A stretch of DNA of 64,000 nucleotides from a virus. Below, piece by piece: positions 4,055 to 58,679 of this stretch. A model generated the notes under the pieces. That model was not told where the DNA came from and ran no database searches. It worked only from the letters and a program-made list of their open reading frames with translations. The stretch lies in the IMG/VR virus record IMGVR_UViG_3300035698_025300. One strand, given 5' to 3'. A program made the translations under genes and the position numbers. The stretch's first letter is position 1. Each line of letters starts with the position of its first letter.

Positions 4055-4852
4055 TTACGCAACAAAATTAGTAGTGCTAGATAGTTGCATTCCTCTAGCA
4101 ACCATATCTTTGATAAAATCTTCCTGTAGGCTCTCAAAGCCTGTAACTGGACTTGTGGCGTCTTCGAGAAGGACAAGGCGAGATATGTAGCTGTCATCAT
4201 TAAATGCCTCAGCGATGTCCCTGACGGAATTTGCCAAACAGTGAGAACCAGCTTCGCCAGCGATCAATACTGTGTTTGCATCCATTAAAGACTGTATTAG
4301 CTTTGTGTTGATATGAGTTGTTGGATCTTGTGGATCGGGAACCTCTGCCTTAATAGCTGAATAGTGTTCAGTAAAGAGATTGCTTCCTTTGGTAACGTAG
4401 TTAACAAAAGCGAATTCTTTCTCCCATTCAATAAAAGCTTCAAACAATTCGGGATAAACAGCATAGCCGATACTTCCAATAAGACAGTGCGGTGGCCAAA
4501 TGCAGAGTGGATATCTGTCACCATCTTCCAAAGATTCAACATAATCAACCATTCGCTCTCTCCAGGAGAGATTAGTTGGATTCCATTTACCGTTTTTTAT
4601 ATCTTCTAAAGAAATAATCGTGAATGGATCTGGATGATTGCCATTACTGTCACGCCAAAATACTGGATGTGCCACATCAACAAAGTGGTGAGAATCAAGA
4701 GTGACGTGAATATCGTTAAGAATATTTTTATTTTTTTTAACGAATTTAGCAAGTCTAGCCATATCATCATTTGCCCCCTGCACAAAAAGATTTCCTTTTG
4801 GATCGCAAAAATCATTTTGAGGGTCAATGCAAAGAAGGTCGATTTTTTTCAT
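4055..4852 (-). CDS. isochorismatase/nicotinamidase-like cysteine hydrolase
   Basis: IDPQNDF, TLDSH, WPPHC, KGSN..TEHYSA, GEAGSHC. Confidence 0.85.
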   Translation of the reverse strand: MKKIDLLCIDPQNDFCDPKGNLFVQGANDDMARLAKFVKKNKNILNDIHVTLDSHHFVDVAHPVFWRDSNGNHPDPFTIISLEDIKNGKWNPTNLSWRERMVDYVESLEDGDRYPLCIWPPHCLIGSIGYAVYPELFEAFIEWEKEFAFVNYVTKGSNLFTEHYSAIKAEVPDPQDPTTHINTKLIQSLMDANTVLIAGEAGSHCLANSVRDIAEAFNDDSYISRLVLLEDATSPVTGFESLQEDFIKDMVARGMQLSSTTNFVA

Positions 4853-20670: not shown

Positions 20671-20716
20671 CTTCTTTCTTAAAAAATCTTTGTTCGTTCT
20701 CTATTTATAAAAATTA

Positions 20717-20787
20717 AGCTCTCGGAGGGGGTCGAACCCTCATCTCTGGTGTACGAGACCAGTATGCTCCCCTTGCACCACAAGAGC
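20717..20787 (-). tRNA. tRNA-Thr(CGT)
   Basis: Loop CTCGTAC. Confidence 0.88.
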
Positions 20788-20830
20788 GTCAAACAACATT
20801 ATATTATAGTATATTATTTTTTATATGCAA

Positions 20831-22254: not shown

Positions 22255-22262
22255 GTTCTTAA

Positions 22263-26228: not shown

Positions 26229-26973
26229 TACGTGTTACCTCTTTATATTTATTCTTTAATCTTCTAAAATTTGATATATGGTCCCAGCCAAACTTTTTGA
26301 ATTTAACTCTTTTAAATGACCTGCCTGTCCTGGCGGCTATATAGTATAAATAAGTATCTTGAGAAGGGATAGGAAGAATCTTTTTACCATAATATTTCTC
26401 AGATAGTGTAGCAGCCTCCTGAGCCCATCCGGTTTTACAGAAGAACAGCCAGGAAATAATCCTTGAATGACATACTCTTTTTGAGTCTGGATCGTAGTTA
26501 AAATCAAGACGAGGGCTGTATTTTAGACTATCTACATCATCTCCCCAGTTGTCTAATGTTTGTATTGCATTAGCGGGCTTAGTGTATCCCCATGGGTTAG
26601 ATATAAAAACATGCCCCCCAGTAAACCAATCATCAAAAATCCATTTACGAGAGTCTGTAGCTAATGTGTCTGTGTCTATCTTTAAATACCATTCAGTTTC
26701 TACGTGTTGAGGGGCATAGACTAAAGATGTTAGCATTCCAGATCTCTGATCAGGAAAATCGATATTGTCCCAGGGTACCAACTTCACATCGTGTCCCCTC
26801 AAAAAATCTAGCCTGTCATCATTTTCGTTAATTTGTTTTTTGTCAAACATAATAACAATCTTTTTAAACTGGTTAAATTCTTTACCCTTCAGCCCAAACC
26901 ATGTTTTCCAAGAGAGTTTCAATTCGTCTAGGTGGTGATCGTCTATAGCTGTTACTAGTGTTATATTTTTCAT
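26215..26973 (-). CDS. putative GT-A glycosyltransferase
   Basis: WYLKIDTDT DxD; context. Confidence 0.55.
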   Translation of the reverse strand: MKNITLVTAIDDHHLDELKLSWKTWFGLKGKEFNQFKKIVIMFDKKQINENDDRLDFLRGHDVKLVPWDNIDFPDQRSGMLTSLVYAPQHVETEWYLKIDTDTLATDSRKWIFDDWFTGGHVFISNPWGYTKPANAIQTLDNWGDDVDSLKYSPRLDFNYDPDSKRVCHSRIISWLFFCKTGWAQEAATLSEKYYGKKILPIPSQDTYLYYIAARTGRSFKRVKFKKFGWDHISNFRRLKNKYKEVTRNEQI

Positions 26974-28283
26974 TTATTTTTAGGGGCCTTCTCTTGTCCA
27001 TACCATATTATGTTTTTCTCTTTTTCTTTGGCTCTAAACAATTTTCTGGCTTCGTCAACATTTTCTTCTAGATCTTTTAGTTTAGACTGTACATCTAATT
27101 CCGATAAGCCGGTCACACCATTGTTGACATCTGCCTCAAAACTAGATCTCTCCATTTTAGCCAAGTCTAGATTTTTTCGTAGTCTATCTAGTTCTGCTTT
27201 CACTTTGTCTTTATCGCCTTGATTTTTATTTTTTGCTTTTTTCTTTTTCTTTTCATTTGCTTGACGATCATAAAGCCCTACAGTTCTTTCTTCGTCTATA
27301 TTTGGCATATTTTGAGTTGCTATTTGAATTGCTTCTTCAAAATCAATAAAAGGGAAAACTTTCAATTCTGAATCAGGATTGCAGTTAAATATATTAAATT
27401 GATGCTTTTCGAATACAGGCTTTAGTTCAGTAAGGCGTTCTTTGAGCTTTTCGTATGTGGCATTATTGCCTTTTACTGAACTCGGAGACCTACCCTGATT
27501 AAAATGGTATGTATACTTTTCGCTCATATTGAAGTCAACACCTAACATAAAGACCTTGCGAATTCCTAAAAAGAATAGTAATCTCATAGTTGGAAGAAAA
27601 ACAGATCTTCCTCCGCCCCACTTGGAATGGTCTCCCCAATTAATAGTATCTTCAAACAAGAATTGACTAGCATCGAACTTTTCGTTTCTTCGATAATAAA
27701 AAACGTTTGGACAGTCGCCAACTTTAATGTCCATTTCTTTCCATCTATCGTTGTCAAATAAATTTTTATCGGCGTGTGCAAAAGGAACTATTTTAGTGAT
27801 TTTCGGATCTAACCAAATAGATTTCATAAAATGGGTAGGATTATCTACGCAGCACCACAAGTTAGGACGAAAGCTTTTTGGCGAATTGTTCATACCAATT
27901 GTGATAAATCCTGGACGATTGAGAAGCTCTTTGTTTTCAATTTTTGCGAAGCTGGGGCCGCTAGCTACTAAGAATGCCGATGTTCCCCTATAGATATCGC
28001 CTAGCCACACAGGATGGCCATCTCTAGTAAATAGTATGGGGGGAGACTGTATGTACTGCCCCACGTTAAAGCCCACATGACGCTCTCTCCCGTGTCTTAG
28101 AGAAGTGTGATCGGAAGCATCTCTCCCGTTGCCGCCAGGAGCCTGATGTATAATCCCATCAACTATCTTCCCATCTGGGGTTTGCCTACCAATTTTATGA
28201 TCATTATCTCCTATCTGTTTCTCTTTGGAGACATCAATTTTTCTTACCTCATCCGTCATTATTACTCCCAATAATCTTCCCAA
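26970..28283 (-). CDS. Maf/DUF115-like glycosylation-associated protein with coiled-coil tail
   Basis: FLVASGPSF, IGMNN, LGVDF..HF, FNCNP.S.L..FP. Confidence 0.65.
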   Translation of the reverse strand: MGRLLGVIMTDEVRKIDVSKEKQIGDNDHKIGRQTPDGKIVDGIIHQAPGGNGRDASDHTSLRHGRERHVGFNVGQYIQSPPILFTRDGHPVWLGDIYRGTSAFLVASGPSFAKIENKELLNRPGFITIGMNNSPKSFRPNLWCCVDNPTHFMKSIWLDPKITKIVPFAHADKNLFDNDRWKEMDIKVGDCPNVFYYRRNEKFDASQFLFEDTINWGDHSKWGGGRSVFLPTMRLLFFLGIRKVFMLGVDFNMSEKYTYHFNQGRSPSSVKGNNATYEKLKERLTELKPVFEKHQFNIFNCNPDSELKVFPFIDFEEAIQIATQNMPNIDEERTVGLYDRQANEKKKKKAKNKNQGDKDKVKAELDRLRKNLDLAKMERSSFEADVNNGVTGLSELDVQSKLKDLEENVDEARKLFRAKEKEKNIIWYGQEKAPKNK

Positions 28284-33313: not shown

Positions 33314-33925
33314 TCAATCCGCAACTACCCAGTCTATTTTACTGCTTTTTCCAATATAACTAAATATTTTTTTATATTCTTCAAAATTCTCATCGTCAAA
33401 ACAGCAGATAGTTACTTCGTCTAAATACGTTCCTTCAGGATGACATATGTGGTGCAGCGCTCTATTTAGTGAATTCATTGCAATATCGGCTGCTATATCT
33501 TTTGGAAAACAGAAAGCCCCTGTACTTATACAAGGAAAAGCTATACTTTTTAACCCCTGCTTACTAGCCAGTGTCAAGCAGTTATTATAACACAATTCTA
33601 AATCACTTAAACACTTTGGTTTTTCTTTTTCAGAAAAAACGGGGCCTACGGTATGTATTACATATTTCGCTTTTAAATCATAACCGCCAGTAATACGAGC
33701 CTCACCAACGGGACAGCCGTAAAGATTTAAACATTCTCCTAATAGTTTTGGGCCAGCCGCTCGATGAATTGCACCATCCACCCCTCCACCGCCAGTTAGT
33801 TGTTCGTGGGCAGCGTTAACCATGGCATCTACAGAAAGTTCTGTAATATCTCCTCTCGTGAGTAGTATTTTAGCTCCTACTGTTCGCTTATTTACTGACA
33901 TTTCCATATTGATATCTTCGGTCAT
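33314..33925 (-). CDS. macrodomain ADP-ribose hydrolase (YmdB/MacroD-like)
   Basis: GDIT, VNAAH..LTGGGGVDGAIHRAAG, IHTVGP, FPCISTGAF. Confidence 0.92.
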   Translation of the reverse strand: MTEDINMEMSVNKRTVGAKILLTRGDITELSVDAMVNAAHEQLTGGGGVDGAIHRAAGPKLLGECLNLYGCPVGEARITGGYDLKAKYVIHTVGPVFSEKEKPKCLSDLELCYNNCLTLASKQGLKSIAFPCISTGAFCFPKDIAADIAMNSLNRALHHICHPEGTYLDEVTICCFDDENFEEYKKIFSYIGKSSKIDWVVAD

Positions 33926-36086: not shown

Positions 36087-36686
36087 ATGGCCCAAATCAA
36101 AAATCTGTCAAATGGTGATAACTATACTGTAGCAGATAGTGATACTCTCGTCTTATCTTTAGACGAAAGCGAAGAGATTTATATAATCATACAATCTAGA
36201 CCCATGATGCTAACCAGAATAAATGATATACTATTTATAGGAATCCGGTCACCAGAGCAGAGAGAATACAAGGCAGAATATCATCTGTCAGAAGTTGTTG
36301 ACGGTTTTAGTGATTCGTTTTCTTACTGGGAATGGCAGATTGAATATATAGAGAATAACCCAGCGGCTAATACGTTTAGGATAAAAATAGATTTTATCTT
36401 TCAGACCTGTGGAGCTGGCCCAAAATTCCCACCAGATTATATTGATTTGCTAGTAGAAAATCTTAATGATGAGAACGCGTCGCCGAATCCGAAAAAATGG
36501 GCCAATTTCAGTTGCTCGCACAAAGCCTGGATTCACCTGACAAGCTTGGCTAAAGACGGCTATATGCTACCAGAAGATGTTCCAGACGAACCAAAAGTAG
36601 AAGACTACACAGATCTTGTTAGTAGCATTGACGACTGTTGGGACTGCTCTATAGCTGAACCTGACTGGCTAAAGGCTCGACAGTGA
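36087..36686 (+). CDS. hypothetical protein
   Basis: 199-aa ORF with RBS. Confidence 0.7.
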   Translation: MAQIKNLSNGDNYTVADSDTLVLSLDESEEIYIIIQSRPMMLTRINDILFIGIRSPEQREYKAEYHLSEVVDGFSDSFSYWEWQIEYIENNPAANTFRIKIDFIFQTCGAGPKFPPDYIDLLVENLNDENASPNPKKWANFSCSHKAWIHLTSLAKDGYMLPEDVPDEPKVEDYTDLVSSIDDCWDCSIAEPDWLKARQ

Positions 36687-37282
36687 GTAATAAGATTTTC
36701 GGTATAGGTCTGCTCAAAACGGGAACTGTCTCTCTATATGAGGCAATGAAGAGGATAGGATTTAAGTCAGTTCATTACCCCAGAAAAATGAATCTGATAA
36801 AAAAACATCAATTCAGTAATGATATTACCGTGTCTGGTAGATTCAGTTCGCTAGACATGGAATTCGAAAATAGTAAATTCATTTTTACGCAAAGAAACAT
36901 AGACGACTGGGTTGAATCTTGCTATAACCACTTTAAAAACTCTAATAGACAAAATATGAATTTTTCTTACTGGATGTCGGAAGCCTACTATTATATTTTT
37001 AATTGTTCCGCAGAAAAAGCTGAGAATCTATCTAAGCAACAATACAAAAAGTGTTATAAAGAATTCGAACAAAAAGTTCGAGATTACTTCGCGAACCGTC
37101 CTAATGACATTTTATATCTAAACATAATGGAAGACAAGAATCCTTGGACCAAGTTAGTGACATTCTTAGAAAAAAATAGCCTTCTTTCTTTTCCTCACAA
37201 AAACAAAGGAAAATATTCAAAAATTGACGTTGACAAGAAAAACCACAAAAGTGGAAAGAACTTTCATATTATAGGTCGATAA
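36683..37282 (+). CDS. sulfotransferase-family protein
   Basis: KIFGIGLLKTGTVSL PAPS loop, KFIFTQR...W..S, W..L..FL, FPH.N. Confidence 0.8.
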   Translation: MSNKIFGIGLLKTGTVSLYEAMKRIGFKSVHYPRKMNLIKKHQFSNDITVSGRFSSLDMEFENSKFIFTQRNIDDWVESCYNHFKNSNRQNMNFSYWMSEAYYYIFNCSAEKAENLSKQQYKKCYKEFEQKVRDYFANRPNDILYLNIMEDKNPWTKLVTFLEKNSLLSFPHKNKGKYSKIDVDKKNHKSGKNFHIIGR

Positions 37283-43895: not shown

Positions 43896-45752
43896 ATGGA
43901 TAAATTATCTCAGTCTTCTGTAACATTGGAAAATGCAGTTAAAAGCGATACAGGTCAGCCAATCGTTACCATAAAAGGGAACACTTACCCCATTAGAAAA
44001 GAGCTAGGTCGTAGCGGGTTGGGATTTACTTGGTATCGTGGAGGCAATTTCTGGTGGATGTTTAAAAGTCGGTTCGATGCCAAGAAAGATTTTATACTAC
44101 CTAAAATACAATCTCTTGGTATTGATATTTCTAATTTTAAAGATGTAGACGCTTCTTCAGCAGCATCTGCAACCGACAATAGCAATCAGTCCGCATCTTC
44201 CGAGACAGCTAAAGAGTCCGATTTGACAGACAAGACAACTGTTACTGACAATTATTCGTATACTAATTTTCCCGTTAATGACAATATTTACACAACAACT
44301 ATACCGGCTTTACATCAGGGAAAAAACATTGAGTTGAAGGTTCAGTTCGGTCGTAATAGGGATGAAAAGTATAGAAAAACTATTCCTAGATATATTATAC
44401 AGATTTTTTATAAAGATATTTTGGTACGAAAGAAAGAAGGGGCTCCACCGAAAGGATCTAAGTGGACTAAGGCCGGTCCTAATTATAACGAAGATGATAT
44501 AGTTAGAAGAGTTTTAGAGGCTATCCCGTCTTGGGCAGACAATCCTAAGTCTGCTTTATATGAGCATATAGAGTACGAAGACGTAGCCGAGAATCGTGGA
44601 GCAGATTTACAGGGAGTTTTTGATACTTTATCTGAATCATTTGGAGCAGATGTTTCTGATAAATTTCCTGATAGAAGTATACGCCTAGATGTTCCTCCGT
44701 ATGAGGGGGTGGTCCCTATCAAGCTAGATCCTCAGTACTATAAGACTTTGAGGGGGCTTACTGTAAATCTGTTGACTAATGTGGATCATAGATTGGCTCC
44801 AAGGCCAGGAAAACTCGCTAGAATAGACATACCAGTTACTGAGGGGACTATTTCAGATGTTCTTAGGTATGTAGACGATTATATTTTACAGAACCAGCAG
44901 AAAATAAAAGAATCATATTTAGAATATTTAAAGTCTTTCGCTTATACAAAAGAGCAGGAAGAGCAATTTTCTTCAGAGTTTGGGGAAGTTTTAGACAGAA
45001 TTGTAAATAATAACGTTGATGTATCTTTCTTTAAGAGGCAATTACTTGAGCTTGGTTTTATTCGGCCAAGCAAACGGCAGAAGGCCACTGGTCCAGGCGT
45101 GGCTCCACAGGGAGCTTTTAAACTTATTATAGATGATAAAGCTATCCGTGATGCTTCTTTGAGGTGGAAGAGCGCTGATTTAAACGATCCAAAGTATATA
45201 TATGCTGCTATAGCTTACAATTTGATGCGTATTAAGCATAGGAATATTGGCTACATGCCTATTCTTTTGGACGATGCATACCGCGCTGTGGCTTCTTTGC
45301 TTAAGAGATTTTTTGATGCAAATATAACTAACCAGCAGGTTGCGTCTTTTGTTGATTCGGTTGCTAGGGGCATATTTAAAGATTTAACCGGCAGGAGTTA
45401 TCGCAGTTTTGACGAGGTATACTCTGATTTTTATTCTGGCAATTGGAACTCGGATCAACAATCTACAGAAACTGGGCAGTTTGTGGCAAATGTTAATAAC
45501 GCAGCTTTGACGGCTTTTGCAGATTTTATGACCTCCAATATGAATATAACCATAGAACAGGTGGTCACAAACCCAAAATCGGCTTATCGTAGATTCGCTT
45601 TACAACATCATCCGGACAGGGTTCCAAATGAACAGAAAGCAGAGGCCGAGAGGATCATGGCTGAAGCAAACGCTTTGTATGAGAATCTTCCAAGAGAAGT
45701 ATTTAGCTCGTCTAACTGGTATATAAAATCGAAGAGGTCTAAAAATGGCTAA
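43896..45752 (+). CDS. large protein with a C-terminal J-domain-like HPD motif
   Basis: SAYRRFALQHHPDR...AE..M...N..Y. Confidence 0.7.
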   Translation: MDKLSQSSVTLENAVKSDTGQPIVTIKGNTYPIRKELGRSGLGFTWYRGGNFWWMFKSRFDAKKDFILPKIQSLGIDISNFKDVDASSAASATDNSNQSASSETAKESDLTDKTTVTDNYSYTNFPVNDNIYTTTIPALHQGKNIELKVQFGRNRDEKYRKTIPRYIIQIFYKDILVRKKEGAPPKGSKWTKAGPNYNEDDIVRRVLEAIPSWADNPKSALYEHIEYEDVAENRGADLQGVFDTLSESFGADVSDKFPDRSIRLDVPPYEGVVPIKLDPQYYKTLRGLTVNLLTNVDHRLAPRPGKLARIDIPVTEGTISDVLRYVDDYILQNQQKIKESYLEYLKSFAYTKEQEEQFSSEFGEVLDRIVNNNVDVSFFKRQLLELGFIRPSKRQKATGPGVAPQGAFKLIIDDKAIRDASLRWKSADLNDPKYIYAAIAYNLMRIKHRNIGYMPILLDDAYRAVASLLKRFFDANITNQQVASFVDSVARGIFKDLTGRSYRSFDEVYSDFYSGNWNSDQQSTETGQFVANVNNAALTAFADFMTSNMNITIEQVVTNPKSAYRRFALQHHPDRVPNEQKAEAERIMAEANALYENLPREVFSSSNWYIKSKRSKNG

Positions 45753-46053
45753 AAAAGAATTAGATAAAGAATTATGGGAAAAAGCTTCAAAAGAGGGCGA
45801 GATGTCTTTTTTAAGAATGAGCAGGGCAATGAAAGACCCTCCTTTGGGAATGTCTGATAAAGTCAAGGCTAAATATGAAGAGTTAAAACTTTTCGGCTTT
45901 ATAGAAGCTCTGCCTATAGACTCTGCTCACGCTAAAGACGCATACACTGCGCTGTTCGCACAGTCAGAGTACGATCAACTTTATAAAGATAAGAATGATC
46001 CCACGAAGCTAAGCAAATGGGAAAGGATTACCGGACAGCGCCTTAAGAGTTAA
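45745..46053 (+). CDS. hypothetical protein
   Basis: ORF coupled to the previous gene. Confidence 0.65.
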   Translation: MAKKELDKELWEKASKEGEMSFLRMSRAMKDPPLGMSDKVKAKYEELKLFGFIEALPIDSAHAKDAYTALFAQSEYDQLYKDKNDPTKLSKWERITGQRLKS

Positions 46054-48019
46054 GTATCTGTTCTTTAAGCTCTATAAATTTCTTGCTTAGAACGAATGGT
46101 AGTTGACTTTCTCTGTGGTCATAACCAAAGGCTCTTTTGCTTGTGACGATGATCGGAGGGGCTTGTACTCTTTTGAATACGTTATTGTTCATTTGTTTCA
46201 TGAACCATTCTAAATCAGTAACAAATTCTTTCGGGTCTCCAAGATTCCATCTATCATATAGTTTTTGGCTTATGTTTAGATTTTCGCATATACGGCCTTG
46301 AATATACCATTCCATTACCAATTCTGGAGCGGTGTTTTTATATGTCATGAAGATTTCTAGAAGTTGGTCGTGATAGGCAAATTTCATTGGATCAATTTGC
46401 TCATCTTTAAGCTCCGCTGATGGGGCAACTTCGAAATTAAATAGATCATCAGGTAAGAGGCTCTCTGGAATAATTTCTTCCATGAATATGTCGCTATTTA
46501 GATATCTGGCCATCTCGAAAACTTCCTCTTTGGTGAGATCTCCTAGCGGGCTAATGGCCCCACCGACATCACCGTAGAGGGTTGCATAGCCTAGCGCTGT
46601 TTCAAGTTTGTTTCCGTTGTTTGTAAACAACGCTCCCATTTTTGCGGCTATGCCGGCTAGAATTGATGAGCCTCTGGTTCTGGCGTAAATATTTTCTATA
46701 ACTAGGCTGCTGGCATCTTCGAATTGGGGGTCATAGCCAGGCCCTAATCGTAGGTTAAGTTCACCTGAATCCCATCCTCCAGCTTTATTAACGGCTATAA
46801 GTGTATCGGTTGCTACTGTTGTTATTGGGATTATGCGATATCTTATTCCCAGCTTATCTGCTATATCTTTAGCAATGTTTTTTGTAGCACTTGAGTTATA
46901 TTTGCTAGGCATATTAATTGCCATGACATTTTTTTCTCCAACGGCCTTAACAAGAAGGCACGCGACAACTGAGCTGTCTATCCCACCAGAAAGGCCAATG
47001 ACAAATTTTGGATGGTCTTTTTGTCCAATTATGTCTTTCATGTGCTGAATGCCACGTATCAATGTTAAATACTTCTCAGCTATTTTGTTATTTTTTCTTT
47101 TTCTTTGTGTCGCGCATATTATGTCAATCATTTCGGTAGAAATTACCATTAGTTTTTCTTTATATTGATCTATTACATAGTCTGCCAACTCTCCCTTTCG
47201 GTTATATACACTACTTCCTCCATCGAACGTGATGATATTTTTGCCGTTATTCTGGGCTCCCACACAGTTGACATAATAGAATTGTGGCATGGGTTTATCC
47301 AGAGGGGCTAATTCTTTGTAGAGGAACTTTATAGCGTTGTGGCGAGCTTTATCTTTACCGTAGGTCCAAGGGGATGCTGATAAATTGATGATAATGGTGG
47401 CTCCATTATTAACGGCATTTTTAGTTGGATTTTTAGCTTTTCCTTCTCGCACATAATCTTCACACCATAGATCTTCACAGAGTTCTACTCCAATTAACTC
47501 ATCTTTGAATTTGAAAGGAGCAAAGATATTAAAGCAGCCGTTTTCCCATAATTGATAAGCTGATGTGAAATATCTTTGATCGTCAAAGAATCTGTAATTA
47601 GGAAGTAGGGCTTTTACTTGTAGTCCTTTTGGGACGAATTTGGAATATTTGTCATGGCCTGATTTCTTAACAGGCTCTCCATTGTAATAGAAATAAGCAG
47701 CATTATATTTTCTAGTCCTGCCATCTTCGTTTGGGAACCAAAAGCCGGATTCATCGTGTTCGCTAAGGAAGACGTTACCGAAAATAACCCCGATTCCCAT
47801 GGACGCCTTAGCGATTTGCTCGTTAAAGCTCATAAGCCATCGGCAATATTCGTCATCATTGAATTTATCGCCAAGAAAATATCCACCTACGCACATTTCA
47901 GGGAAAGATATAAGATTTGCTCCGCGAGCTTTCGCTTCATTAATCATGCGAAGCATTTTATATACATTTTGTTGTGGCTGTCCTGAGACGACATCCATTT
48001 GACCTAGAGCAATGTTCAT
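46043..48019 (-). CDS. nadE: glutamine-dependent NAD+ synthetase
   Basis: N-terminal CN-hydrolase (FPEM, ELCEDLW, SASP) plus synthetase IGLSGGIDSS, GNKLE.ALGYATLYGD, PSAEL. Confidence 0.95.
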   Translation of the reverse strand: MNIALGQMDVVSGQPQQNVYKMLRMINEAKARGANLISFPEMCVGGYFLGDKFNDDEYCRWLMSFNEQIAKASMGIGVIFGNVFLSEHDESGFWFPNEDGRTRKYNAAYFYYNGEPVKKSGHDKYSKFVPKGLQVKALLPNYRFFDDQRYFTSAYQLWENGCFNIFAPFKFKDELIGVELCEDLWCEDYVREGKAKNPTKNAVNNGATIIINLSASPWTYGKDKARHNAIKFLYKELAPLDKPMPQFYYVNCVGAQNNGKNIITFDGGSSVYNRKGELADYVIDQYKEKLMVISTEMIDIICATQRKRKNNKIAEKYLTLIRGIQHMKDIIGQKDHPKFVIGLSGGIDSSVVACLLVKAVGEKNVMAINMPSKYNSSATKNIAKDIADKLGIRYRIIPITTVATDTLIAVNKAGGWDSGELNLRLGPGYDPQFEDASSLVIENIYARTRGSSILAGIAAKMGALFTNNGNKLETALGYATLYGDVGGAISPLGDLTKEEVFEMARYLNSDIFMEEIIPESLLPDDLFNFEVAPSAELKDEQIDPMKFAYHDQLLEIFMTYKNTAPELVMEWYIQGRICENLNISQKLYDRWNLGDPKEFVTDLEWFMKQMNNNVFKRVQAPPIIVTSKRAFGYDHRESQLPFVLSKKFIELKEQILNS

Positions 48020-48029
48020 TTTTGTCCTT

Positions 48030-48773
48030 TTATTTTCCTGTGACGGCGGTTATGAAGTCGCAAGCATCTAATACGTTATTTACTGATGGGAAATCGCATG
48101 TGCAGTTTTTCGTGCAGATTACTTGTTTGACTGCATTTTTGTCCAGTTCAGCAGGGGCTGTGTCTACAGCACAGAATCGAACTCCGATCTTCTGCCAGTT
48201 TTTTACGAGATCATCAATAGGCAGACCTGGTAGTTCTTTTACCGCATCTATGACAACTACGACATTGTAACCTCTGTTTGCTAGCCCCACTACCGCATCG
48301 TTAACACAGACATTTGTTGCAACCCCATAAACGAATATGGTTGTTTGTTTTGTTGCAACATCATTAAGGACTTTTTCTGTGAAAGGGTTGCCATCGAATA
48401 CATTAAATGCGTCTTTTAGTAATAGTATGTCGTCGGCTAGCTTAACTTCCTCCGAACTGTAAGATTGATCTTCCCAATCTATTACCAGGGCGTGTTCACC
48501 TGGGAACGTTTCTTCGATTAGGTTTACCCCGTCTGTATTCCTCATGCAGTGTGGGGGGAATTTCGACATAAAATCTGGTTCGTCTGATAGCTCTTCAGAG
48601 TCTTTGTTGTGACAGTCTGCTGTGCTGATGACTGTAATGTCCTGCTTTTTCGATAGTTTCGTTAGAAAAACTAGGTTGGCCTTTATTCCACCCGCTCCGT
48701 CAATTGATAGTTTCCCATCAGAATTCATAAAATCTTTTTGCGTGTCTACGTTCCAGAAAATAGCCTTATTCAT
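48030..48773 (-). CDS. pncA: nicotinamidase
   Basis: VDTQKDFM, DCH, FPPHC, GVATNVCV; operon context. Confidence 0.88.
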   Translation of the reverse strand: MNKAIFWNVDTQKDFMNSDGKLSIDGAGGIKANLVFLTKLSKKQDITVISTADCHNKDSEELSDEPDFMSKFPPHCMRNTDGVNLIEETFPGEHALVIDWEDQSYSSEEVKLADDILLLKDAFNVFDGNPFTEKVLNDVATKQTTIFVYGVATNVCVNDAVVGLANRGYNVVVVIDAVKELPGLPIDDLVKNWQKIGVRFCAVDTAPAELDKNAVKQVICTKNCTCDFPSVNNVLDACDFITAVTGK

Positions 48774-49620
48774 TTATATTCTCCTGTTGTTTAAGTCTAT
48801 AGAGTTTTTTATTTAATCGGTATAAATATGATCTACCGAATTTATTATTTTCAAGTCCATCATATAGCGTTTGAGGAATGTCGTTTTTTATTTCTTTGCA
48901 ATTAACAGAGCAGCCCATAGCTATAGTTGCTACCGTGTCTACATCGCCTTGATATGAGATGCACCGTTTAAGCACACCACTCATGGTATTATAGTCTTTG
49001 ATTGCCGTGATTGCAGCACGAACACCCATAAAAGATGTTGTTCCTACTCTGCCTGCCCATCTTTTGTTCCAATGCCCAGACTTAATTGTATCATCTAAAA
49101 ATACACCTATATCTTTTTTGAGTCCCAAATTGTAAATGAAGTAGTGACTCATGAGGGAGACTGCACAAGATGCACTCAACCCTTTTGGTGTATTGTGCGT
49201 AACTTCTGACTGCAAGGTTGCGTATTCTATTACTCTATTAATGTCTGGAAGTATCCCTATTGGACAGCCCCTCATGCTTGAGCCGTTCTTTGTGCTCTCA
49301 GGTATTATCTTGTCTAGGAATTCTTTTCCGTTTTTAACGGAAACAAGAAATTTTAAGAACCCCCGGGCGTATCCATTCCTGGGGTCACGGCGAAAACAAT
49401 TAACGAAAGAATCGGCTATATTTTCTTTTGTCCATTCTTTTTTAGCTATTAACAATTCTGCTATAGCAATACTCATTTGGGTGTCATCGGTATATGATCC
49501 TGGCATAGAGTCGTGGCTGGGGTGACTAAAGTATTGACTTAAATCATTAGGGCCTGGTTGTTTTCTTGCAAACTCAAAAGCTGCACCATATGCATCGCCA
49601 ATTGCTAATTCTACTAGCAT
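48766..49620 (-). CDS. ADP-ribosylglycohydrolase (DraG/ARH family)
   Basis: AIGDAYG, YTDDTQM, NGSSMR, GDVDTVA. Confidence 0.92.
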   Translation of the reverse strand: MLVELAIGDAYGAAFEFARKQPGPNDLSQYFSHPSHDSMPGSYTDDTQMSIAIAELLIAKKEWTKENIADSFVNCFRRDPRNGYARGFLKFLVSVKNGKEFLDKIIPESTKNGSSMRGCPIGILPDINRVIEYATLQSEVTHNTPKGLSASCAVSLMSHYFIYNLGLKKDIGVFLDDTIKSGHWNKRWAGRVGTTSFMGVRAAITAIKDYNTMSGVLKRCISYQGDVDTVATIAMGCSVNCKEIKNDIPQTLYDGLENNKFGRSYLYRLNKKLYRLKQQENINE

Positions 49621-49622
49621 TT

Positions 49623-50807
49623 TTATTCCACCTCACTGCATAGCGGCTCATTAAAGAATGTCCATTTTGCAACTTTTAGCGCGTCTTCGTCTCCTGTTGC
49701 TTTGCCTGGGTTGTCGCTAAGTTTTATTACTTCTATTCCATTGACAGATCGTAGTTTGATAACCATATTTAGTGGCGTAGTATTGTCAAAGTCATTTGTA
49801 AAGTGTGTTCCAATTCCAAAGGCTACTTTGATTTTATCGGCAAACTCTTTTTGTATTTGTATAGCACTGTCTGTATTCAGTCCGTCGCTGAAAACTATAG
49901 TTTTTGCACTTGGATCGATACCAAGACTCTTATACTTTTCAATAACTTTATTTCCAAATTCTATAGGGTCACCGCTATCATGCCTGACGCCATCGTAAAG
50001 TTTTGCTAGGCGTAGATTAAAGTTTTTGAAAAATACGTTGCTTCCATATGTGTCTGTTAAGGCGATTCCTAGATCGGCGTTATAGACTCGAACCCAGTTC
50101 TGTAGGGCAAAATAGTTTGCATTTCTTAATCCTTCTAGTGCGGAACAGCCCATGATCCATTCGTGGGCCATTGTTCCAATTGGAGTGACATTGTATTTTC
50201 TGGCAAAATATAAATTGCTAGTTCCGATAAAACCCGTTCCTGTTGATAGGATTTTTATGGCTTTATCTTGCGTCTCGAAGCTTAATCGCCTTCTCGTGCC
50301 GAAGTCGGCATATTTACACTTCTCTAGGTCTAGTTTTTCGGTTTTGATTTTTGTTTTTTCTAGGAAGGTCGTGTTGATCTGTTCTTCCCACGAATTGTCG
50401 AAATTGAGAAAGTACCCTTCGCTGATCATAGCCATCAATGGAACTTCCCAGAGGATGGTTTTGTGCCATGGGCCAGTTATCGCGATATTAAGTTCACCGT
50501 CCTCTATTGTTGCTTTGACTTCTTTTGGATCAAATCTGTAGTTTTTGAGGTAATTTAAATACGAGGTTTTAAAATAAGGGCAGTTTTTCTTGAGCCACTC
50601 GATATCCGAGTCGGTAACTTGTAGATTTTTAAAGTCCTGTATTGACCCTTTTAATTGACCAAGAAATTCTTCTGAAAATTTGTGTTCTCCACGATTTGTG
50701 AATTTGTAAGTGGCTTCAGCGTCTGGGAATAGCTCCAATACAGCCTGCTGCATCGTAAATTTGTAAAGATCTGAATCGAGGATGGATGTTGGTTTTGCTG
50801 TTAGCAT
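49623..50807 (-). CDS. pncB: nicotinate phosphoribosyltransferase
   Basis: LDSDLYKFTMQQA, DFGTRRR, GTSN, GTMAHEW, GVRHDSGDP, KLSDNPGK. Confidence 0.95.
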   Translation of the reverse strand: MLTAKPTSILDSDLYKFTMQQAVLELFPDAEATYKFTNRGEHKFSEEFLGQLKGSIQDFKNLQVTDSDIEWLKKNCPYFKTSYLNYLKNYRFDPKEVKATIEDGELNIAITGPWHKTILWEVPLMAMISEGYFLNFDNSWEEQINTTFLEKTKIKTEKLDLEKCKYADFGTRRRLSFETQDKAIKILSTGTGFIGTSNLYFARKYNVTPIGTMAHEWIMGCSALEGLRNANYFALQNWVRVYNADLGIALTDTYGSNVFFKNFNLRLAKLYDGVRHDSGDPIEFGNKVIEKYKSLGIDPSAKTIVFSDGLNTDSAIQIQKEFADKIKVAFGIGTHFTNDFDNTTPLNMVIKLRSVNGIEVIKLSDNPGKATGDEDALKVAKWTFFNEPLCSEVE

Positions 50808-50850
50808 TTTTGGACCCTTTTAGAAAAGAATTTGACTAATCTGTTTTCAA

Positions 50851-50878
50851 ATTATATACTATTGTGGGAGAATCGCAA
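50851..50878 (-). promoter_or_regulatory. sigma70-type promoter of the NAD operon
   Basis: TTGCGA-16-TATAAT. Confidence 0.6.
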
Positions 50879-50931
50879 TTTTTTTTAAAAAAAGTGATTA
50901 ATTCCTGATGCATTATAATCATATGTAACTT

Positions 50932-51771
50932 GTGGAGGAGTTTATGAATAACACTATTGATATTGAAGCAACATGGAAAAGGTATAAAAGCGGGAAGCAC
51001 CCTAAGCTAAAGAATGATATTATCGTTTATTACTATGGGCTTGTAGATAAAATAGCTAAAAAGATGTCTGCAAAAACGAATTACAAAGTTTCATCTGAAG
51101 AGTTGAGGTCTCACGGTGTGGATGGTTTGTATAGAGCTATTGACGCATACGACTTGGACCGTGGAATTAAATTTGAAACGTACGCTTATGCTAGGATACA
51201 TGGTTCCATGATAGATGGATTAAGAACTGAGGATTGGATTCCTAGATCTGTACGTATAAGACATAACAGCATGGAAAAAGCAAAAGAGAAAGCGAGGATT
51301 AAGCTTGGACACGATCCAAATGAGGAAGAAATCTTATCAGAAGCCGGCATAGACGTGATTGATTTTTATAAAAATGACAAGAAATATAAGCCAGTAGGTT
51401 TTGCAAGTATAGATTCTAATTTTGTAAGTAACGGATCTATAGAAGATTCAGACAATAAACAAGATTTTAATCGATATTTAGAGGATGGCCATGTAGCCAG
51501 GCCCGGTTCAGAAATAGAAGATCGGGAATTTTTATGCAAGGTCGTTGGGAGAGATTTAAAGCTTATAGAAAAAAAGATCATTTATTATTATTATTACCAG
51601 AAATTAACTATGCGAGAGATAGCGGATATTATAAGCATGTCTGAATCTCGTATCAGTCAGATACACCATGAGGTACTGAAAAAAATCAAAAGATCCATTA
51701 AAAACAACCCAGAATTGTTTGGAGAAGAAATTTTAGCTCTGTTCGCCAAAAGAGAAAAATCTAAAAAGTAA
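50932..51771 (+). CDS. FliA/WhiG-family sigma factor
   Basis: KFETYAYARIHGSMIDGLRTEDWIPRSVR; region 4 MSESRISQIH. Confidence 0.9.
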   Translation: MEEFMNNTIDIEATWKRYKSGKHPKLKNDIIVYYYGLVDKIAKKMSAKTNYKVSSEELRSHGVDGLYRAIDAYDLDRGIKFETYAYARIHGSMIDGLRTEDWIPRSVRIRHNSMEKAKEKARIKLGHDPNEEEILSEAGIDVIDFYKNDKKYKPVGFASIDSNFVSNGSIEDSDNKQDFNRYLEDGHVARPGSEIEDREFLCKVVGRDLKLIEKKIIYYYYYQKLTMREIADIISMSESRISQIHHEVLKKIKRSIKNNPELFGEEILALFAKREKSKK

Positions 51772-51817
51772 ATTGTTTTCAGCGTTGTTGAACCATATAA
51801 TAAAGTCGAGGATATCT

Positions 51818-52333
51818 ATGATTTATGTAAAAGTTGGAGACATTACTGCCTGCAAGGGGTATGACGCTATCGTGAACGCCGCCAATGGTATAGGAATACT
51901 AGGCAAAGGGGTGGCTGGAGCTATTCGTAATGCTGGTGGGATGGTGATACAAGATGAAGCGCGACAGATTTACAAAGACAAAGGGAAACCTTTTTCTCCT
52001 GGAGAATATTACAGAACAGGAGCGGGTAACCTGAAAAAGCGTGGAATATTGAATGTATATCATGCTGTAACGATGTCTATGCCTGGCTCACTAAGTAGCT
52101 TACATGTGATCCTTGAGGTTATGCCTAGAGTCCTGGAGGGAGCCATAAACGATGATTGTGATTCTATAGCCTTTCCGGGACTAGGCACAGGCATTGGTGG
52201 TATTGATCCTTCAAGCGCCGCGAGTTGCATGTTTGGTATCGCATTGCGATATCACGACAGAATAAACATATATTTTATTGATAAGAATGAAAAATTTATT
52301 AATATGATAAAAGATAAGGCCGGTTTGCTATGA
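51818..52333 (+). CDS. macrodomain protein
   Basis: GDIT, IVNAANG.G.LGKGVAGAI, AFPGLGTGIGG. Confidence 0.9.
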   Translation: MIYVKVGDITACKGYDAIVNAANGIGILGKGVAGAIRNAGGMVIQDEARQIYKDKGKPFSPGEYYRTGAGNLKKRGILNVYHAVTMSMPGSLSSLHVILEVMPRVLEGAINDDCDSIAFPGLGTGIGGIDPSSAASCMFGIALRYHDRINIYFIDKNEKFINMIKDKAGLL

Positions 52334-55097: not shown

Positions 55098-55241
55098 AAA
55101 AATAAAAGTATAAGGTTTGATTGTATGGGGCTTTGTACAAAAGAGCAGTTTTCGTCACGGAAGAAGAAGAGGATTCATTTCGGCCGATTTGTATGGATTG
55201 TATTGCAGGCCAACTTTTTGAAACAATTAATGGAGAAAAAT

Positions 55242-58142
55242 ATGTCAGGATTTTATTCTTATGAAGAGGCGGTCGAAGCCTCTTTGGAATATTTTAACGG
55301 AGACCGACTAGCAGCAGAGGCTTTTGTGGGGAAGTATGCTTTAAAGGACAAAGAAGAGCAATACTTAGAAAAAGACCCCGATCAAATGCATCGACGGGAA
55401 GCTAGGGAATTTTATAAGATAGAAAAGAAATACCCCAACCCTCTTTCCGAAGAAGAAATTTATTCTTACTTGAGCAATTTCGAATATATTATACCAGGCG
55501 GTTCTCAAATGTCTGGTATTGGTAATGATTTTAAGGTTCAGACTTTAGGGAATTGTTATGTTGTGAAACCCCCATATGATAGTTATGGCGGTTTGATGTA
55601 TTCTGATCAGCAGCTAGCTCAACTAATGAAGCGCCGAGCCGGTGCGGGAATTGATATTTCTCCATTACGCCCAAAGAATATGCTCGTTGCAAACGCTGCT
55701 GGGACCACAGACGGCATTGCTGTTTTTATGGAGAGATACTCCAATACTTGCAGGGAAGTTGCACAGAATGGACGTAGGGGGGCTCTGATGATTACCCTTA
55801 ATGTTCACCACCCAGAAATACTTAATTTTATAAACGTAAAAAGAGATTTAAATAAGGCTACCGGAGCTAATATCTCTGTTCGCTTTACGGACGAGTTTAT
55901 GAATGCTGTTGAGAATGATGAAAAATATAAACTTCGTTGGCCAGTTGACTCGAAAGAGCCAGTGGTTTCTGAGGATATTTCTGCAAAGCTTGTTTGGGAA
56001 GCTTTCGTTGATGCTTCTTGGACTTGCGCTGAGCCTGGGTGTCAATTTATAGATGCTATGAACAATAATTCTCCATCGCATTGTTATGGAGTAGTAGATG
56101 AACGATTTTACAATATAACTACAAATCCTTGCGTAACTGGAGGCACAGAGGTATTAACCGATAGAGGCAATATCCCTATAAGAGAGATCGTTAAAAATGG
56201 ATTTGATAATTATAAAGTTTATACTTATGATATATGTAGTGGCAATATAGAGACCGAAAGCATTGTTTTTGGGGGCTTGACTAAAGAGGAGGCTGATGTT
56301 ATAGAACTGGAACTGGATGATGGCGAAGTTTTGCGATTGACTCCTGATCATAAGGTTTATACTGAGAATCGGGGATACGTTAAGGCTTCAATGTTGGGCG
56401 AAGAAGATGTTATATTAAAAGTTGAGAGAATGGAAACAAAAAAGATTGTTAGAAAAAGAATAAAAAAAAATAGAGTCATTGAAAATGAAGATGTGTACGA
56501 TTTGACCGTAGAGAAAAATCATAATTTCTTCGCGAATGGAATATTGGTTCATAATTGCGGTGAAATTATTATGGGGGTTGACTCTTGCAGGCTGATGTCT
56601 ATTAATCTATATTCTTTCGTTGATAATCCTTTCGCCGAGAACGCTGTATTTGATTTTGAAAAGTTAGAAAAAATTTCAGGGATAGGTCAAAGGCTTATGG
56701 ATGATGTCGTTGATATGGAGATTGTTAAAATACAGAAAATCATAGAAAAAGTAAAATCGGATCCTGAACCAGAACATATTAAACAAATAGAATTAGATAT
56801 GTGGCAAGATTATTTGGACACATGCCAGTTAGGTCGCCGAACAGGTTTGGGGATTATGGGTCTGGCTGATGCTATGGCTGCTGTTAATGTTAAGTTTGGA
56901 TCTGAAGAATCTATAAAGATGACGGGCGAAATTTATAAAGTTTTAAATAGAGGGGCATATAAAGAGTCTATTAAGTTGGCAGAAGAAAGAGGGCCATTCC
57001 CTCTTTACAATAAAAAGATTGAAAAAGATAATGAATATCTAAATAGGGTTTTAGAAGCTCACGGATTGAAAAGTAAACACAATAAGGTTGGCCGTCGAAA
57101 CATCGCCCTACTCACTACTGCCCCAACAGGGACAGGAGCGTTAGAGGCTCAGGTCTCTTCTAGCGGAGAGCCAGTTTTTAGGGTGTCTTATAAGAGGAGG
57201 CGCAAAATCAACCCCTCAGATCGGCAGGCTACGGTAGATTTTGTAGATGACAGAGGGGATAAATGGCAAGAATACGTGGTGTATCATTCAAAGTTCCAAA
57301 TATGGATGGATGTTTCTGGAAAAGAAGAAATAGAAGATTCTCCTTACTTTCAGGCGACAGCCGACGATGTTGATTGGGGGGCTTCTGTAAAGATGCAGGC
57401 TGAAGCTCAAAAATGGATTTGCCATTCAATATCTAAGACGTGTAATCTCCCCAAAGAGGCGAGCAAAGAACTCGTTTCAGATATTTATATGGACGCTTGG
57501 AAGTCTGGCTGCAAGGGGTTTACTATTTATAGAGATGGTTGCAGAGACGGCGTGTTATTAGACCTGGAATCTGCTAATAATGCAGGTGGTATCACTAAAA
57601 ACGATGCTCCAAAACGCCCAAAGAAATTACGTGCAGACGTTTATCACATTAAGATTACTAAAAAATTAGATAAACCACGAACATTTGACTATTTAGTTTT
57701 AGTAGGATTGTTGAATGATGAGCCATATGAGGTTTTTGTGATGGAGAACGGTTCACTTCCGAGACATTACAAAAAAGGCGTAATTATCAAAGTGAAACGT
57801 GGACAATATCGTTTGGAGTTAGATGGGGATACAAAAAATAAATATTCTGTAAATAATATTTTAGATAGTACCACAGAGTTCGAAGACTCGTTAACCAGGT
57901 TAACGTCTACGGCCATTCGTCATGGAGTCGATATGTCATATGTTGTTCAGCAATTAGAAAAAGCAGAAGGTGATATGTGGTCATTTAGCAAGGCTGTGTC
58001 TAGGGCTTTAAAGAAGTATATAAAAGATGGAACCCATGTCACAGGAGATGTTTGCGGAAATCCAGATTGCGGCTCTAACGATTTGGTCCGGACGGAAGGC
58101 TGCGTGACTTGTGTTAGTTGTGGTCATAGTAAATGCTCTTAG
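55242..58142 (+). CDS. nrdJ: class II (B12-dependent) ribonucleotide reductase with mini-intein
   Basis: LGNC, RRGA, TTNP|intein|CGEI, RRTGLG, TAPTG, SISKTCN, C-terminal Zn ribbon; likely start MSGFYS. Confidence 0.92.
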   Translation: MSGFYSYEEAVEASLEYFNGDRLAAEAFVGKYALKDKEEQYLEKDPDQMHRREAREFYKIEKKYPNPLSEEEIYSYLSNFEYIIPGGSQMSGIGNDFKVQTLGNCYVVKPPYDSYGGLMYSDQQLAQLMKRRAGAGIDISPLRPKNMLVANAAGTTDGIAVFMERYSNTCREVAQNGRRGALMITLNVHHPEILNFINVKRDLNKATGANISVRFTDEFMNAVENDEKYKLRWPVDSKEPVVSEDISAKLVWEAFVDASWTCAEPGCQFIDAMNNNSPSHCYGVVDERFYNITTNPCVTGGTEVLTDRGNIPIREIVKNGFDNYKVYTYDICSGNIETESIVFGGLTKEEADVIELELDDGEVLRLTPDHKVYTENRGYVKASMLGEEDVILKVERMETKKIVRKRIKKNRVIENEDVYDLTVEKNHNFFANGILVHNCGEIIMGVDSCRLMSINLYSFVDNPFAENAVFDFEKLEKISGIGQRLMDDVVDMEIVKIQKIIEKVKSDPEPEHIKQIELDMWQDYLDTCQLGRRTGLGIMGLADAMAAVNVKFGSEESIKMTGEIYKVLNRGAYKESIKLAEERGPFPLYNKKIEKDNEYLNRVLEAHGLKSKHNKVGRRNIALLTTAPTGTGALEAQVSSSGEPVFRVSYKRRRKINPSDRQATVDFVDDRGDKWQEYVVYHSKFQIWMDVSGKEEIEDSPYFQATADDVDWGASVKMQAEAQKWICHSISKTCNLPKEASKELVSDIYMDAWKSGCKGFTIYRDGCRDGVLLDLESANNAGGITKNDAPKRPKKLRADVYHIKITKKLDKPRTFDYLVLVGLLNDEPYEVFVMENGSLPRHYKKGVIIKVKRGQYRLELDGDTKNKYSVNNILDSTTEFEDSLTRLTSTAIRHGVDMSYVVQQLEKAEGDMWSFSKAVSRALKKYIKDGTHVTGDVCGNPDCGSNDLVRTEGCVTCVSCGHSKCS
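56130..56555 (+). mobile_element. mini-intein (142 aa, no endonuclease)
   Basis: CVTGGTEVLT...TPDHKV...VYDLTV..NHNFFANGILVHN followed by Cys. Confidence 0.92.
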
Positions 58143-58160: not shown

Positions 58161-58679
58161 ATGGTTAAATTGAAGTTTAAAAAGCTAAATGGTGATGCAA
58201 TAATTCCTGTATATCAAAAAGAAGGTGATGCTGGATTTGATTTTCATGCTGTTATAGATTGTGATAATCCATATTTTGTTAAATCCGGTGAATACTCTAT
58301 ATATGATAGTTCGTTAATCAGGAAAAGAGTGGTAAATGATTGTTTAATTATTCCTTCTATGTGTCAGTGTGTTGTTAGGACGGGTCTTTCTGTTGAGATA
58401 CCAATAGGTTATGAGTTGCAAGTCCGTCCACGCAGTGGTTTAGCCTTTAAGAAAAGTATTACTGTTACGAATTCTCCAGGTACTATAGATTCTGGATACC
58501 GTGGGGAGATTATGGTTATACTATTTAATCTGGGTACAAGCTCGTTTATCGTTGATAGCAGTGATAGAATTGCTCAGGGCGTTATTTCTGTCGTCCCAAA
58601 GGTTGAAATCGAGGAAGTTGAGGAGCTTAGCGATACGGACAGGGGCTCTGGAGGATTCGGTTCTACTGGCAAGAAATAG
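58161..58679 (+). CDS. dut: trimeric dUTPase
   Basis: AGFD, RPRSG, PGTIDSGYRGE, DRIAQ, RGSGGFGSTG. Confidence 0.95.
   Translation: MVKLKFKKLNGDAIIPVYQKEGDAGFDFHAVIDCDNPYFVKSGEYSIYDSSLIRKRVVNDCLIIPSMCQCVVRTGLSVEIPIGYELQVRPRSGLAFKKSITVTNSPGTIDSGYRGEIMVILFNLGTSSFIVDSSDRIAQGVISVVPKVEIEEVEELSDTDRGSGGFGSTGKK

Follow-up and report, generated by a model that had tools for sequence, protein, structure and literature searches.

Why would a phage carry genes that rebuild nicotinamide adenine dinucleotide (NAD+) from nicotinamide, and how much of the route do they cover? This question is raised by a four-gene operon, consisting of pncB, a gene for an ADP-ribosylglycohydrolase (ARH), pncA and nadE, on a stretch of 64,000 nucleotides (here called the window) of the IMG/VR virus record IMGVR_UViG_3300035698_025300, which derives from a very large uncultured phage from a salt lake. 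NAD+ depletion is among the commonest means by which bacteria abort phage infection, and three phage pathways that rebuild NAD+ have been demonstrated. A first-pass annotation of the window had read the operon as a further pathway of this kind, running from nicotinamide through nicotinate, nicotinate mononucleotide (NaMN) and nicotinate adenine dinucleotide (NaAD) to NAD+. The identities it gave to pncB, the ARH gene, pncA and glutamine-dependent nadE were borne out here by family scores, motifs and a structure model of PncA, and these identities support the logic of the pathway. It is well supported by the predicted gene products that the operon encodes three of the four enzymes for the conversion of nicotinamide to NAD+ (steps 1, 2 and 4).

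Identification of the salvage enzymes

The enzyme predicted for the entry step, PncA (P0003), matched the Isochorismatase family PF00857 with 60.6 bits (cut-off 27), and its best solved relatives by sequence were mostly nicotinamidases. The residues D10, K120 and C156 and the residues D53, H55 and H75 matched D10, K94, C133 and D52, H54, H71, respectively, of P. horikoshii PncA, and these catalytic residues (D10, K120, C156) and metal ligands (D53, H55, H75) were invariant in 12 homologues. When the AlphaFold2 model with a predicted local distance difference test (pLDDT) score of 85 was compared with PDB by Foldseek, ranks 1-16 were all nicotinamidases, with template modelling (TM) scores by target of up to 0.82. 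Related phages carry orthologues of P0003 flanked by pncB and nadE. The score against the E. coli-type PncA equivalog NF008623 was under the cut-off (25.6 bits vs 174), and P0003 is, judged by its profile scores, a divergent branch and not the enterobacterial PncA equivalog. The sequence matches, catalytic residues, model and gene context supported the assignment of P0003 as a predicted nicotinamidase.

The C-terminus of P0003 forms a cysteine-containing tail of approximately 40 residues (xNCxCD...FP, 48030-48160), which is common to three phage PncA copies (P0003, P0126 and P0127) and absent from nine other aligned homologues of approximately 210 aa. The pLDDT of the tail was below that of the core.

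PncB (P0001) exceeded the cut-offs for nicotinate phosphoribosyltransferase (NAPRTase) in both TIGR01514 (454 bits, cut-off 269.55) and NF003704 (493 bits, cut-off 379), and holds both domains of the enzyme, PF17767 (NAPRTase_N) and PF04095. In the alignment with the solved NAPRTase 2IM5 (286 bits), GTMAHEW was aligned to GTHPHEW with the histidine of HEW in place. The histidine of this motif is the autophosphorylation site in the enterobacterial enzyme.

NadE (P0004) contains PF00795 and PF02540, scored 126.5 bits against TIGR00552 (cut-off 63.65), and aligned over its full length to the solved glutamine-dependent enzyme 4F4H with 149 bits. The motifs FPEM (E41), VKALLPN (K136) and LCEDLW (C181) and the ATP loop SGGIDS were matched to those of 4F4H, and the nitrilase-type Glu-Lys-Cys triad (E41, K136, C181) is intact. 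The protein was below the cut-off of the full-length equivalog NF010588 (303 bits vs 479); with 658 aa against the 546 positions of the profile, it is by alignment a divergent, longer NadE with insertions.

The adenylyltransferase step

In the proposed route, the substrate would be nicotinamide, the product of every NAD+-cleaving enzyme, including NADase defence effectors, ADP-ribosyltransferases and sirtuins. PncA would hydrolyze it to nicotinate (step 1), PncB would join nicotinate with phosphoribosyl pyrophosphate (PRPP) to give NaMN (step 2), an adenylyltransferase not encoded in the window, either host NadD or the product of a phage nadD elsewhere, would make NaAD (step 3), and glutamine-dependent NadE would amidate NaAD to NAD+ (step 4). 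ARH would most likely act on ADP-ribosylated targets or on derivatives of ADP-ribose and set free their ADP-ribose, and the operon with ARH would deal with both products of NAD+ consumption.

The absence of the step 3 enzyme from the window, already pointed out in the first-pass annotation, was confirmed in two ways. Pfam scans of the 64-kb window detected no CTP_transf_like/NadD/NMNAT protein among its approximately 54 open reading frames (ORFs), and tblastn of the window with the NadD of a relative gave no match. Within these 64 kb, the Preiss-Handler gene set is represented by pncB and nadE, and nadD is absent. A syntenic 548-kb relative (547,943-bp contig L018/L081; complete by CheckV) encodes nadD 48 kb from pncB, and the encoded NadD is canonical (GGTFNPIHVGH ... 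SSSDIR). Two near-complete phages (561 kb and 215 kb) with PncA and PncB had no CTP_transf_like gene at all, and therefore host NadD may suffice. NadD is essential in nearly all bacteria, so that its supply by the host is expected. It is possible that the NaAD step depends on a phage nadD elsewhere in the genome or on host NadD.

NCBI assigns the PncB of the 547,943-bp contig to a metagenome-assembled genome of a 'Candidatus Asgardarchaeia archaeon'. This label is probably a binning error, since the contig encodes a sigma-70-type factor and is syntenic with phages.

Operon structure and promoter region

The four minus-strand ORFs are tightly packed in the order pncB, ARH, pncA and nadE, spanning 46043-50807 (Table 1). 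A 2-nt gap at pncB/ARH, an 8-nt overlap at ARH/pncA and a 10-nt gap at pncA/nadE agreed with the abutting or overlapping stops and starts described in the first-pass annotation. The sole intergenic gap of the operon (50808-50931, 124 bp) is common to the divergent sigma-factor gene. The layout and the promoter-like site upstream of pncB are in line with the earlier claim that one promoter drives all four genes, but such sites around the operon were not above those in shuffled sequences (16 observed vs 16.0 expected), so that the claim rests on position and gene packing. An Rfam scan of 45000-52000, covering the NAD+ riboswitch and other RNA, gave nothing at E<=1. The terminator scan detected a single weak site (45840-45823, minus strand) approximately 200 nt beyond the nadE stop; the count was below that of shuffles and the site was not used as evidence.

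Several salt-lake metagenome runs contained near-identical DNA, with short contigs matching the stretch at 99-100% identity. These contigs span two of the three internal junctions, namely pncB/ARH (49447-49852) and pncA/nadE (47543-48254), and no contig bridging ARH/pncA was shown among the short and shallow DNA contigs of four salt-lake runs. The contigs provide no independent support, since the window itself may have been assembled from those runs. The sequencing runs listed for near-identical sequence included no RNA run.

Table 1. Coordinates of the salvage operon and of other features discussed in the text
Feature	Position in window	Strand	Protein	Length (aa)	Basis or remark
nadE, glutamine-dependent NAD+ synthetase	46043..48019	-	P0004	658	CN_hydrolase + NAD_synthase
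pncA, predicted nicotinamidase	48030..48773	-	P0003	247	isochorismatase family; sequence and model
ARH3/DraG-like ADP-ribosylglycohydrolase	48766..49620	-	P0002	284	PF03747
pncB, nicotinate phosphoribosyltransferase	49623..50807	-	P0001	394	TIGR01514, NF003704
Promoter-like site TTGCGA-16-TATAAT, upstream of pncB	50851..50878	-			consensus match only
Sigma-70-family gene, divergent from pncB	50932-51771	+			Pfam
Macro-domain gene (Macro1), directly after sigma gene, opposite pncB	51773-52333	+			Pfam; closest to TTHA0132-type macrodomains
Ribonucleotide reductase (RNR)	55125-58142				near operon
dUTPase	58161-58679				near operon
Second Macro-domain gene	33314-33925	-			strong MacroD-type match, 171 bits to human MACROD2
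Second nicotinamidase-like gene, first in cassette	4055..4852	-	P0005	265	weak Pfam score; residues, profile and model
vWA	3285-4037	-			Pfam
PP2C phosphatase	2473-3282	-			Pfam
Ser/Thr kinase	795-2468	-			Pfam

The ADP-ribosylglycohydrolase

P0002 scored 104 bits against PF03747 (cut-off 26.2), and its best solved relatives were ARH3 (6G1P, 53.8 bits) followed by DraG. P0002 has GDAYGAAFE, YTDDT and GDVDT in alignment with the corresponding motifs of ARH3, and the latter two are the Asp-rich metal-binding motifs. ARH3 cleaves Ser-ADP-ribose, ribose-ribose bonds and O-acetyl-ADP-ribose. The scores of P0002 were below the cut-offs of the DraG equivalog TIGR02662 (50.2 vs 337 bits) and of Tri1 NF041672 (43.1 vs 490 bits), which ruled out DraG proper and Tri1. 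The default role assigned to the protein would be the removal of ADP-ribose from modified macromolecules. No ARH-family enzyme cleaving the cyclic ADP-ribose signals of Thoeris was reported in the literature reachable to us, and for this reason such an activity of P0002 stays speculative.

The nearest homologues of the ARH, with 50-57% identity, were encoded on the chromosomes of Nostocales cyanobacteria, in which the gene order HPPK-NUDIX-ARH is conserved, and the exact protein had no record in the contig collection searched. The Nostocales NUDIX and ARH genes lie 8 nt apart (L084/L086:4844-6849), an arrangement that suggests a cellular pair for ADP-ribose disposal.

Comparison with related phage loci

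PncB homologues were found on at least 169 IMG/VR contigs, and 80 loci were fetched for neighbourhood counts. nadE was located within 10 kb of pncB at 65 of these 80 viral loci, and nadD was present at 41, usually directly after pncB. A same-strand nicotinamidase-like gene accompanied pncB at 18 loci, leaving 62 of 80 without one. A PncA profile scan of IMG/VR gave 28 loci, 20 of which also had pncB and 16 of which had nadE within 6 kb; scans of IMG/VR using the single PncA or the single ARH protein found no relatives.

The closest relative, L091 (a 2.1-kb contig), encodes pncB-pncA-nadE with glutamine-dependent NadE (74, 57 and 68% identity) and has no ARH between pncB and pncA. In L089 and L092 (up to 109 kb; 55 and 48% identity for PncB and PncA), the genes RNR-AAA-MptE-HNH-Macro-sigma are located opposite pncB-pncA-nadE (NH3 type), and ARH is again missing from the pncB/pncA slot. 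The 548-kb contig has the same left block and pncB, followed by small unknown genes before an NH3-type nadE. L081, L082 and L089 have the sigma-Macro-HNH-MptE(-AAA)-RNR block opposite pncB, and Macro1 was kept beside the sigma gene opposite pncB in three related phages. ARH was present at only 2 of the approximately 110 phage loci fetched around pncB or pncA genes. Based on the gene orders of L091, L089/L092 and the 548-kb contig, the presence of ARH in the pncB/pncA slot is due to a lineage-specific insertion, and the conserved unit of the clade is sigma/Macro opposite pncB-(pncA)-nadE. ARH, listed in the first-pass annotation as one of the operon genes, is not part of the conserved module, as the closest relatives keep pncB-pncA-nadE without it.

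The module varied further between phages, with and without nicotinamidase or nadD, with NH3-type or glutamine-dependent NadE, and with accessory ARH, NUDIX or NrtR. In another phage with PncB of 59% identity, a NUDIX gene overlaps the pncB stop and is followed by genes for glutamine-dependent NadE and an isochorismatase, and a cytidylyltransferase gene is located 7 kb upstream. A 497-kb phage (L118:3219-11274) carries a packed set of genes for a divergent NAPRTase-like protein, NadE, a PncA-like protein, NadD, a deaminase-like protein, NrtR (Nudix plus the NrtR winged helix-turn-helix), ARH (198 bits to PF03747) and a fusion of nucleoside 2-deoxyribosyltransferase-like and NUDIX parts. In this operon, a phage-borne version of an NAD regulator that senses ADP-ribose is located next to ARH.

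The only blastn match of the operon among GenBank phages covered 280 bp at 68%, and tblastn with PncA against them gave no match. PncB was present in 13 GenBank phage records, including the cultured Agrobacterium phage Atu_ph07 and Sinorhizobium phage Phosso. Atu_ph07 encodes PncA-like gp236, cytidylyltransferase gp237 and Nudix gp238 within 5 kb of NAPRTase gp242.

Genomic context of the operon

The window carries phage markers, namely the large terminase TerL (phrog_2, E 6.6e-19), 37 tRNA genes and a tmRNA gene (tag ANNAKAAA), the RNA genes being arranged in several arrays within 9673-43761. It is also syntenic with huge-phage contigs of IMG/VR. The possibility of a misassembled bacterial fragment was rejected, as TerL, the tRNA array and the huge-phage synteny speak for a phage. 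Several HNH endonuclease genes were found in the window. A run of glycosyltransferase-like genes (GT8, GT11 and a sialyltransferase-like PHROG) and a sulfotransferase gene, located at 19178-28283 and 36683-37282, adjoin the tRNA arrays.

The first-pass annotation had listed the four operon genes correctly but overlooked the two Macro genes and a second nicotinamidase-like gene. With ARH and the two Macro genes, the window encodes three ADP-ribose hydrolases within 64 kb.

In the second nicotinamidase-like protein (P0005), the residues D10, D53, H55, H122, K155 and C205 were invariant in 8 phage homologues, and profile comparison led to the PncA family with 95% probability. The top PDB matches of its model (pLDDT 86) were nicotinamidases of A. 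baumannii, yeast and Leishmania. The gene is the first of a cassette with vWA, PP2C phosphatase and kinase genes that resembles a TerY-P-like triad. The cassette (795-4852) is 41 kb from the salvage operon, which has its own shorter nicotinamidase, and the link between the two is drawn from comparative genomics only. In phage loci of IMG/VR, homologues of P0005 precede pncB by 2-3 kb, and in five loci (L001, L004, L008, L009 and L015) homologues of the cassette genes and pncB, nadE and/or nadD are interleaved along a single strand. The order in L009 and L123 is nicotinamidase-like gene, vWA, two small genes, PncB, glutamine-dependent NadE, a small gene, PP2C, NadD and kinase, forming one operon of approximately 9 kb (L009:7554-16662 and L123:3192-12300); the contig carrying it is 207 kb long and encodes a neck protein similar to T4 gp13. 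These arrangements suggest that the cassette is a phospho-switch tied to NAD+ salvage. The pairing of a nicotinamidase-vWA-PP2C-kinase cassette with NAD salvage was not found in the literature searched.

Discussion

We consider it somewhat probable, from the gene content, that deamidating recycling (salvage I and the Preiss-Handler pathway) sustains NAD+ against its consumption by defences or by enzymes of the phage itself, where the running of the pathway in infection is inferred. This is a combined reading; counter-defence and general metabolic support are not distinguished by the evidence, and a role of the predicted pathway in counter-defence is plausible. Recycling of the NAD+ cleavage product was favored over plain use of niacin because the operon has a nicotinamidase and because ARH, NUDIX, NrtR and Macro genes have been repeatedly recruited. 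Several points weigh on the other side. With the adenylyltransferase step absent from the window, the pathway seen there is incomplete. It is also a long route with a high cost in ATP, PRPP and glutamine, and it may be too slow to counter fast NAD+ depletion. ARH is not needed for the core function, as it is absent from the nearest relatives. Many phage versions would start from nicotinate and not from the product of NADases, as judged from the large share of pncB loci lacking a nicotinamidase, and the same genes are explained by a benefit to metabolism in general.

The last point leads to the alternative that the genes form a general auxiliary metabolic module, as described for 'NAD-jumbo phages', which would raise or maintain the NAD+ pool for the phage's own long, resource-heavy infection and would have no specific link to immunity. 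The demands would come, for example, from NAD-dependent ligase, ADP-ribosyltransferases and the redox reactions of nucleotide synthesis. NAD+ synthesis genes are reported along with many NAD-consuming enzymes in 174 jumbo phages (PMC11662467), the operon described here adjoins the nucleotide-metabolism genes for RNR and dUTPase, and the prevailing arrangement at viral pncB loci, pncB-nadD-nadE without a nicotinamidase, fits the use of niacin. However, this lineage adds a nicotinamidase and ADP-ribose enzymes (ARH and two Macro proteins, with NUDIX or NrtR in relatives), pointing to turnover of NAD+ cleavage products, and we regard the purely metabolic alternative as a serious but less probable one; the two are not mutually exclusive. 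A reversal of ADP-ribosylation could instead be the centre of the system, with ARH and the neighbouring Macro protein undoing the marks of host toxins (DarT-, CmdT- or Tre1-like) on phage proteins or nucleic acids, or destroying ADP-ribose-derived immune signals, and the salvage enzymes mopping up nicotinamide. The intact metal ligands of ARH, its closeness to ARH3 and the two further ADP-ribose hydrolases in the window are in its favor, and the phage-borne undoing of DarT modification is documented (PMC11825919). Nevertheless, the closest relatives without ARH keep pncB-pncA-nadE, and ARH is rare among the fetched loci; the salvage pathway is therefore the conserved element, and a system centred on ADP-ribosylation is unlikely.

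An incomplete or repurposed gene set would require that nicotinamide, which inhibits sirtuins and NADases as their product, is removed or diverted to nicotinate or NaMN, so that host NAD metabolism is manipulated and not restored. Such a function would be compatible with the lack of NadD or NMNAT in the window and with the two near-complete phages that have PncA and PncB and no CTP_transf_like gene. It appears very improbable to us, since NadE would be useless without NaAD and has yet been kept with intact catalytic residues in both domains; moreover, the host is expected to supply NadD, and the complete 548-kb relative has its own nadD. A broader form of the recycling reading joins these elements: the operon would be a fourth, deamidating phage pathway of NAD+ reconstitution that runs via host NadD and beats NADase defences whatever the form of ADP-ribose they leave, ARH would, in this lineage, extend the protection to ADP-ribosylating toxins or to immune signals derived from ADP-ribose that contain ribose-ribose bonds (2'/3' cyclic ADP-ribose), and the distant cassette would act as a phospho-switch. 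We put forward this full combination only tentatively, and as a whole it is rather doubtful.

If the recycling reading holds, the deamidating route would be a fourth solution to NAD+ depletion, with nicotinamide and PRPP as its sole inputs and one essential enzyme taken from the host. The module appears common in huge phages from many habitats, and the cultured jumbo phages with related genes, Atu_ph07 and Phosso, make the idea testable.

Comparison with known NAD+ systems

Based on sequence alone, 174 'NAD-jumbo phages' with NAD+ synthesis genes and many NAD-consuming enzymes have been described, and both the pncB-nadD-nadE cluster (e.g. Kuafu_71) and phage pncA were already included there (Microbiome 2024, PMC11662467). 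The observation at the sequence level is itself not new, and the gene set differs from those of the tested phage NAD-rebuilding systems. Those clusters resemble the present operon in belonging to large phages, in the clustering of pncB with nadE and in an NAD+ role predicted solely from sequence. Unlike pncB-nadD-nadE, the present operon has no nadD, includes a nicotinamidase (making nicotinamide the entry point and not nicotinate) and ARH, and encodes a glutamine-dependent two-domain NadE. What is new in the gene content is the addition of nicotinamidase and ARH, the lack of a co-encoded nadD and the detached signalling cassette.

Bacterial operons of the NrtR regulon, such as nrtR-nadD<>pncA-pncB-nadE of Pseudomonas and nrtR-pncA-pncB-nadD-nadE of Clostridium, combine the same three enzymes, and nrtR-draG pairs are also known in bacteria (PMC2330246). 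In Pseudomonas, nadD likewise lies outside the operon. The present operon differs from them in being phage-borne, in the order pncB-ARH-pncA-nadE and in the divergent sigma and Macro genes. NrtR was not found in the 64-kb window, and the distant phage operon L118 has NrtR together with ARH. The jumbo phage PA5oct up-regulates the host pncA-pncB1-nadE operon (PMC7318152), and a survey of viral NAD+/ADP-ribose systems by the Aravind group listed only the NadV/NadM/NadR route (PMC9503650).

The phage NAD+-rebuilding systems described are NARP1, consisting of Adps and Namat, NARP2, consisting of Nampt and a bifunctional Nmnat in Vibrio phage KVP40 (10.1101/2024.02.11.579819), and NARP3, consisting of PnuC and NadR (PMC13464706). 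NARP2 overcomes NADase defences (10.1101/2024.02.11.579819; 10.64898/2026.01.28.702374). The paper on NARP1 and NARP2 made no mention of PncA, PncB or NadE (10.1101/2024.02.11.579819). The first-pass annotation had called the operon distinct from NARP1 and NARP2. Indeed, the gene content matches neither, but the novelty was overstated, as Preiss-Handler clusters of jumbo phages were published in 2024 (PMC11662467) and PncA versions recur in IMG/VR. For NARP1, no Prs-like Adps or Namat-like protein was present among the Pfam-scanned ORFs of the window, and the phosphoribosyltransferase present is the NAPRTase equivalog. For NARP2, P0001 passed the equivalog cut-off of NAPRTase and not that of Nampt, and the window contains no CTP_transf_like protein. 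For NARP3, Pfam sweeps across the window revealed neither PnuC nor a NadR-like kinase/adenylyltransferase.

NARP1 and NARP1-AP (Adps and Namat, with or without the Macro phosphatase Adpp) are likewise encoded by phage operons in which NAD+ rebuilding is coupled to an accessory enzyme for ADP-ribose processing. NARP1, however, rebuilds NAD+ from ADP-ribose itself, and the accessory in the present operon is an ARH-fold hydrolase and not a Poa1p-like Macro phosphatase. NARP2 is closer in its inputs: both routes would start from nicotinamide and PRPP independently of the ADP-ribose moiety, and like NARP2 the present route should be insensitive to the form of ADP-ribose left by a defence, e.g. the ADP-ribose phosphate ADPR-1''-phosphate from aRES. 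In comparison with NARP2, the present route would need glutamine and more ATP, with an adenylyltransferase not co-encoded in the window. Whereas NARP2 comprises two tested, non-deamidating steps, the route proposed here would consist of four deamidating steps catalyzed by other enzyme families, as predicted from the genes.

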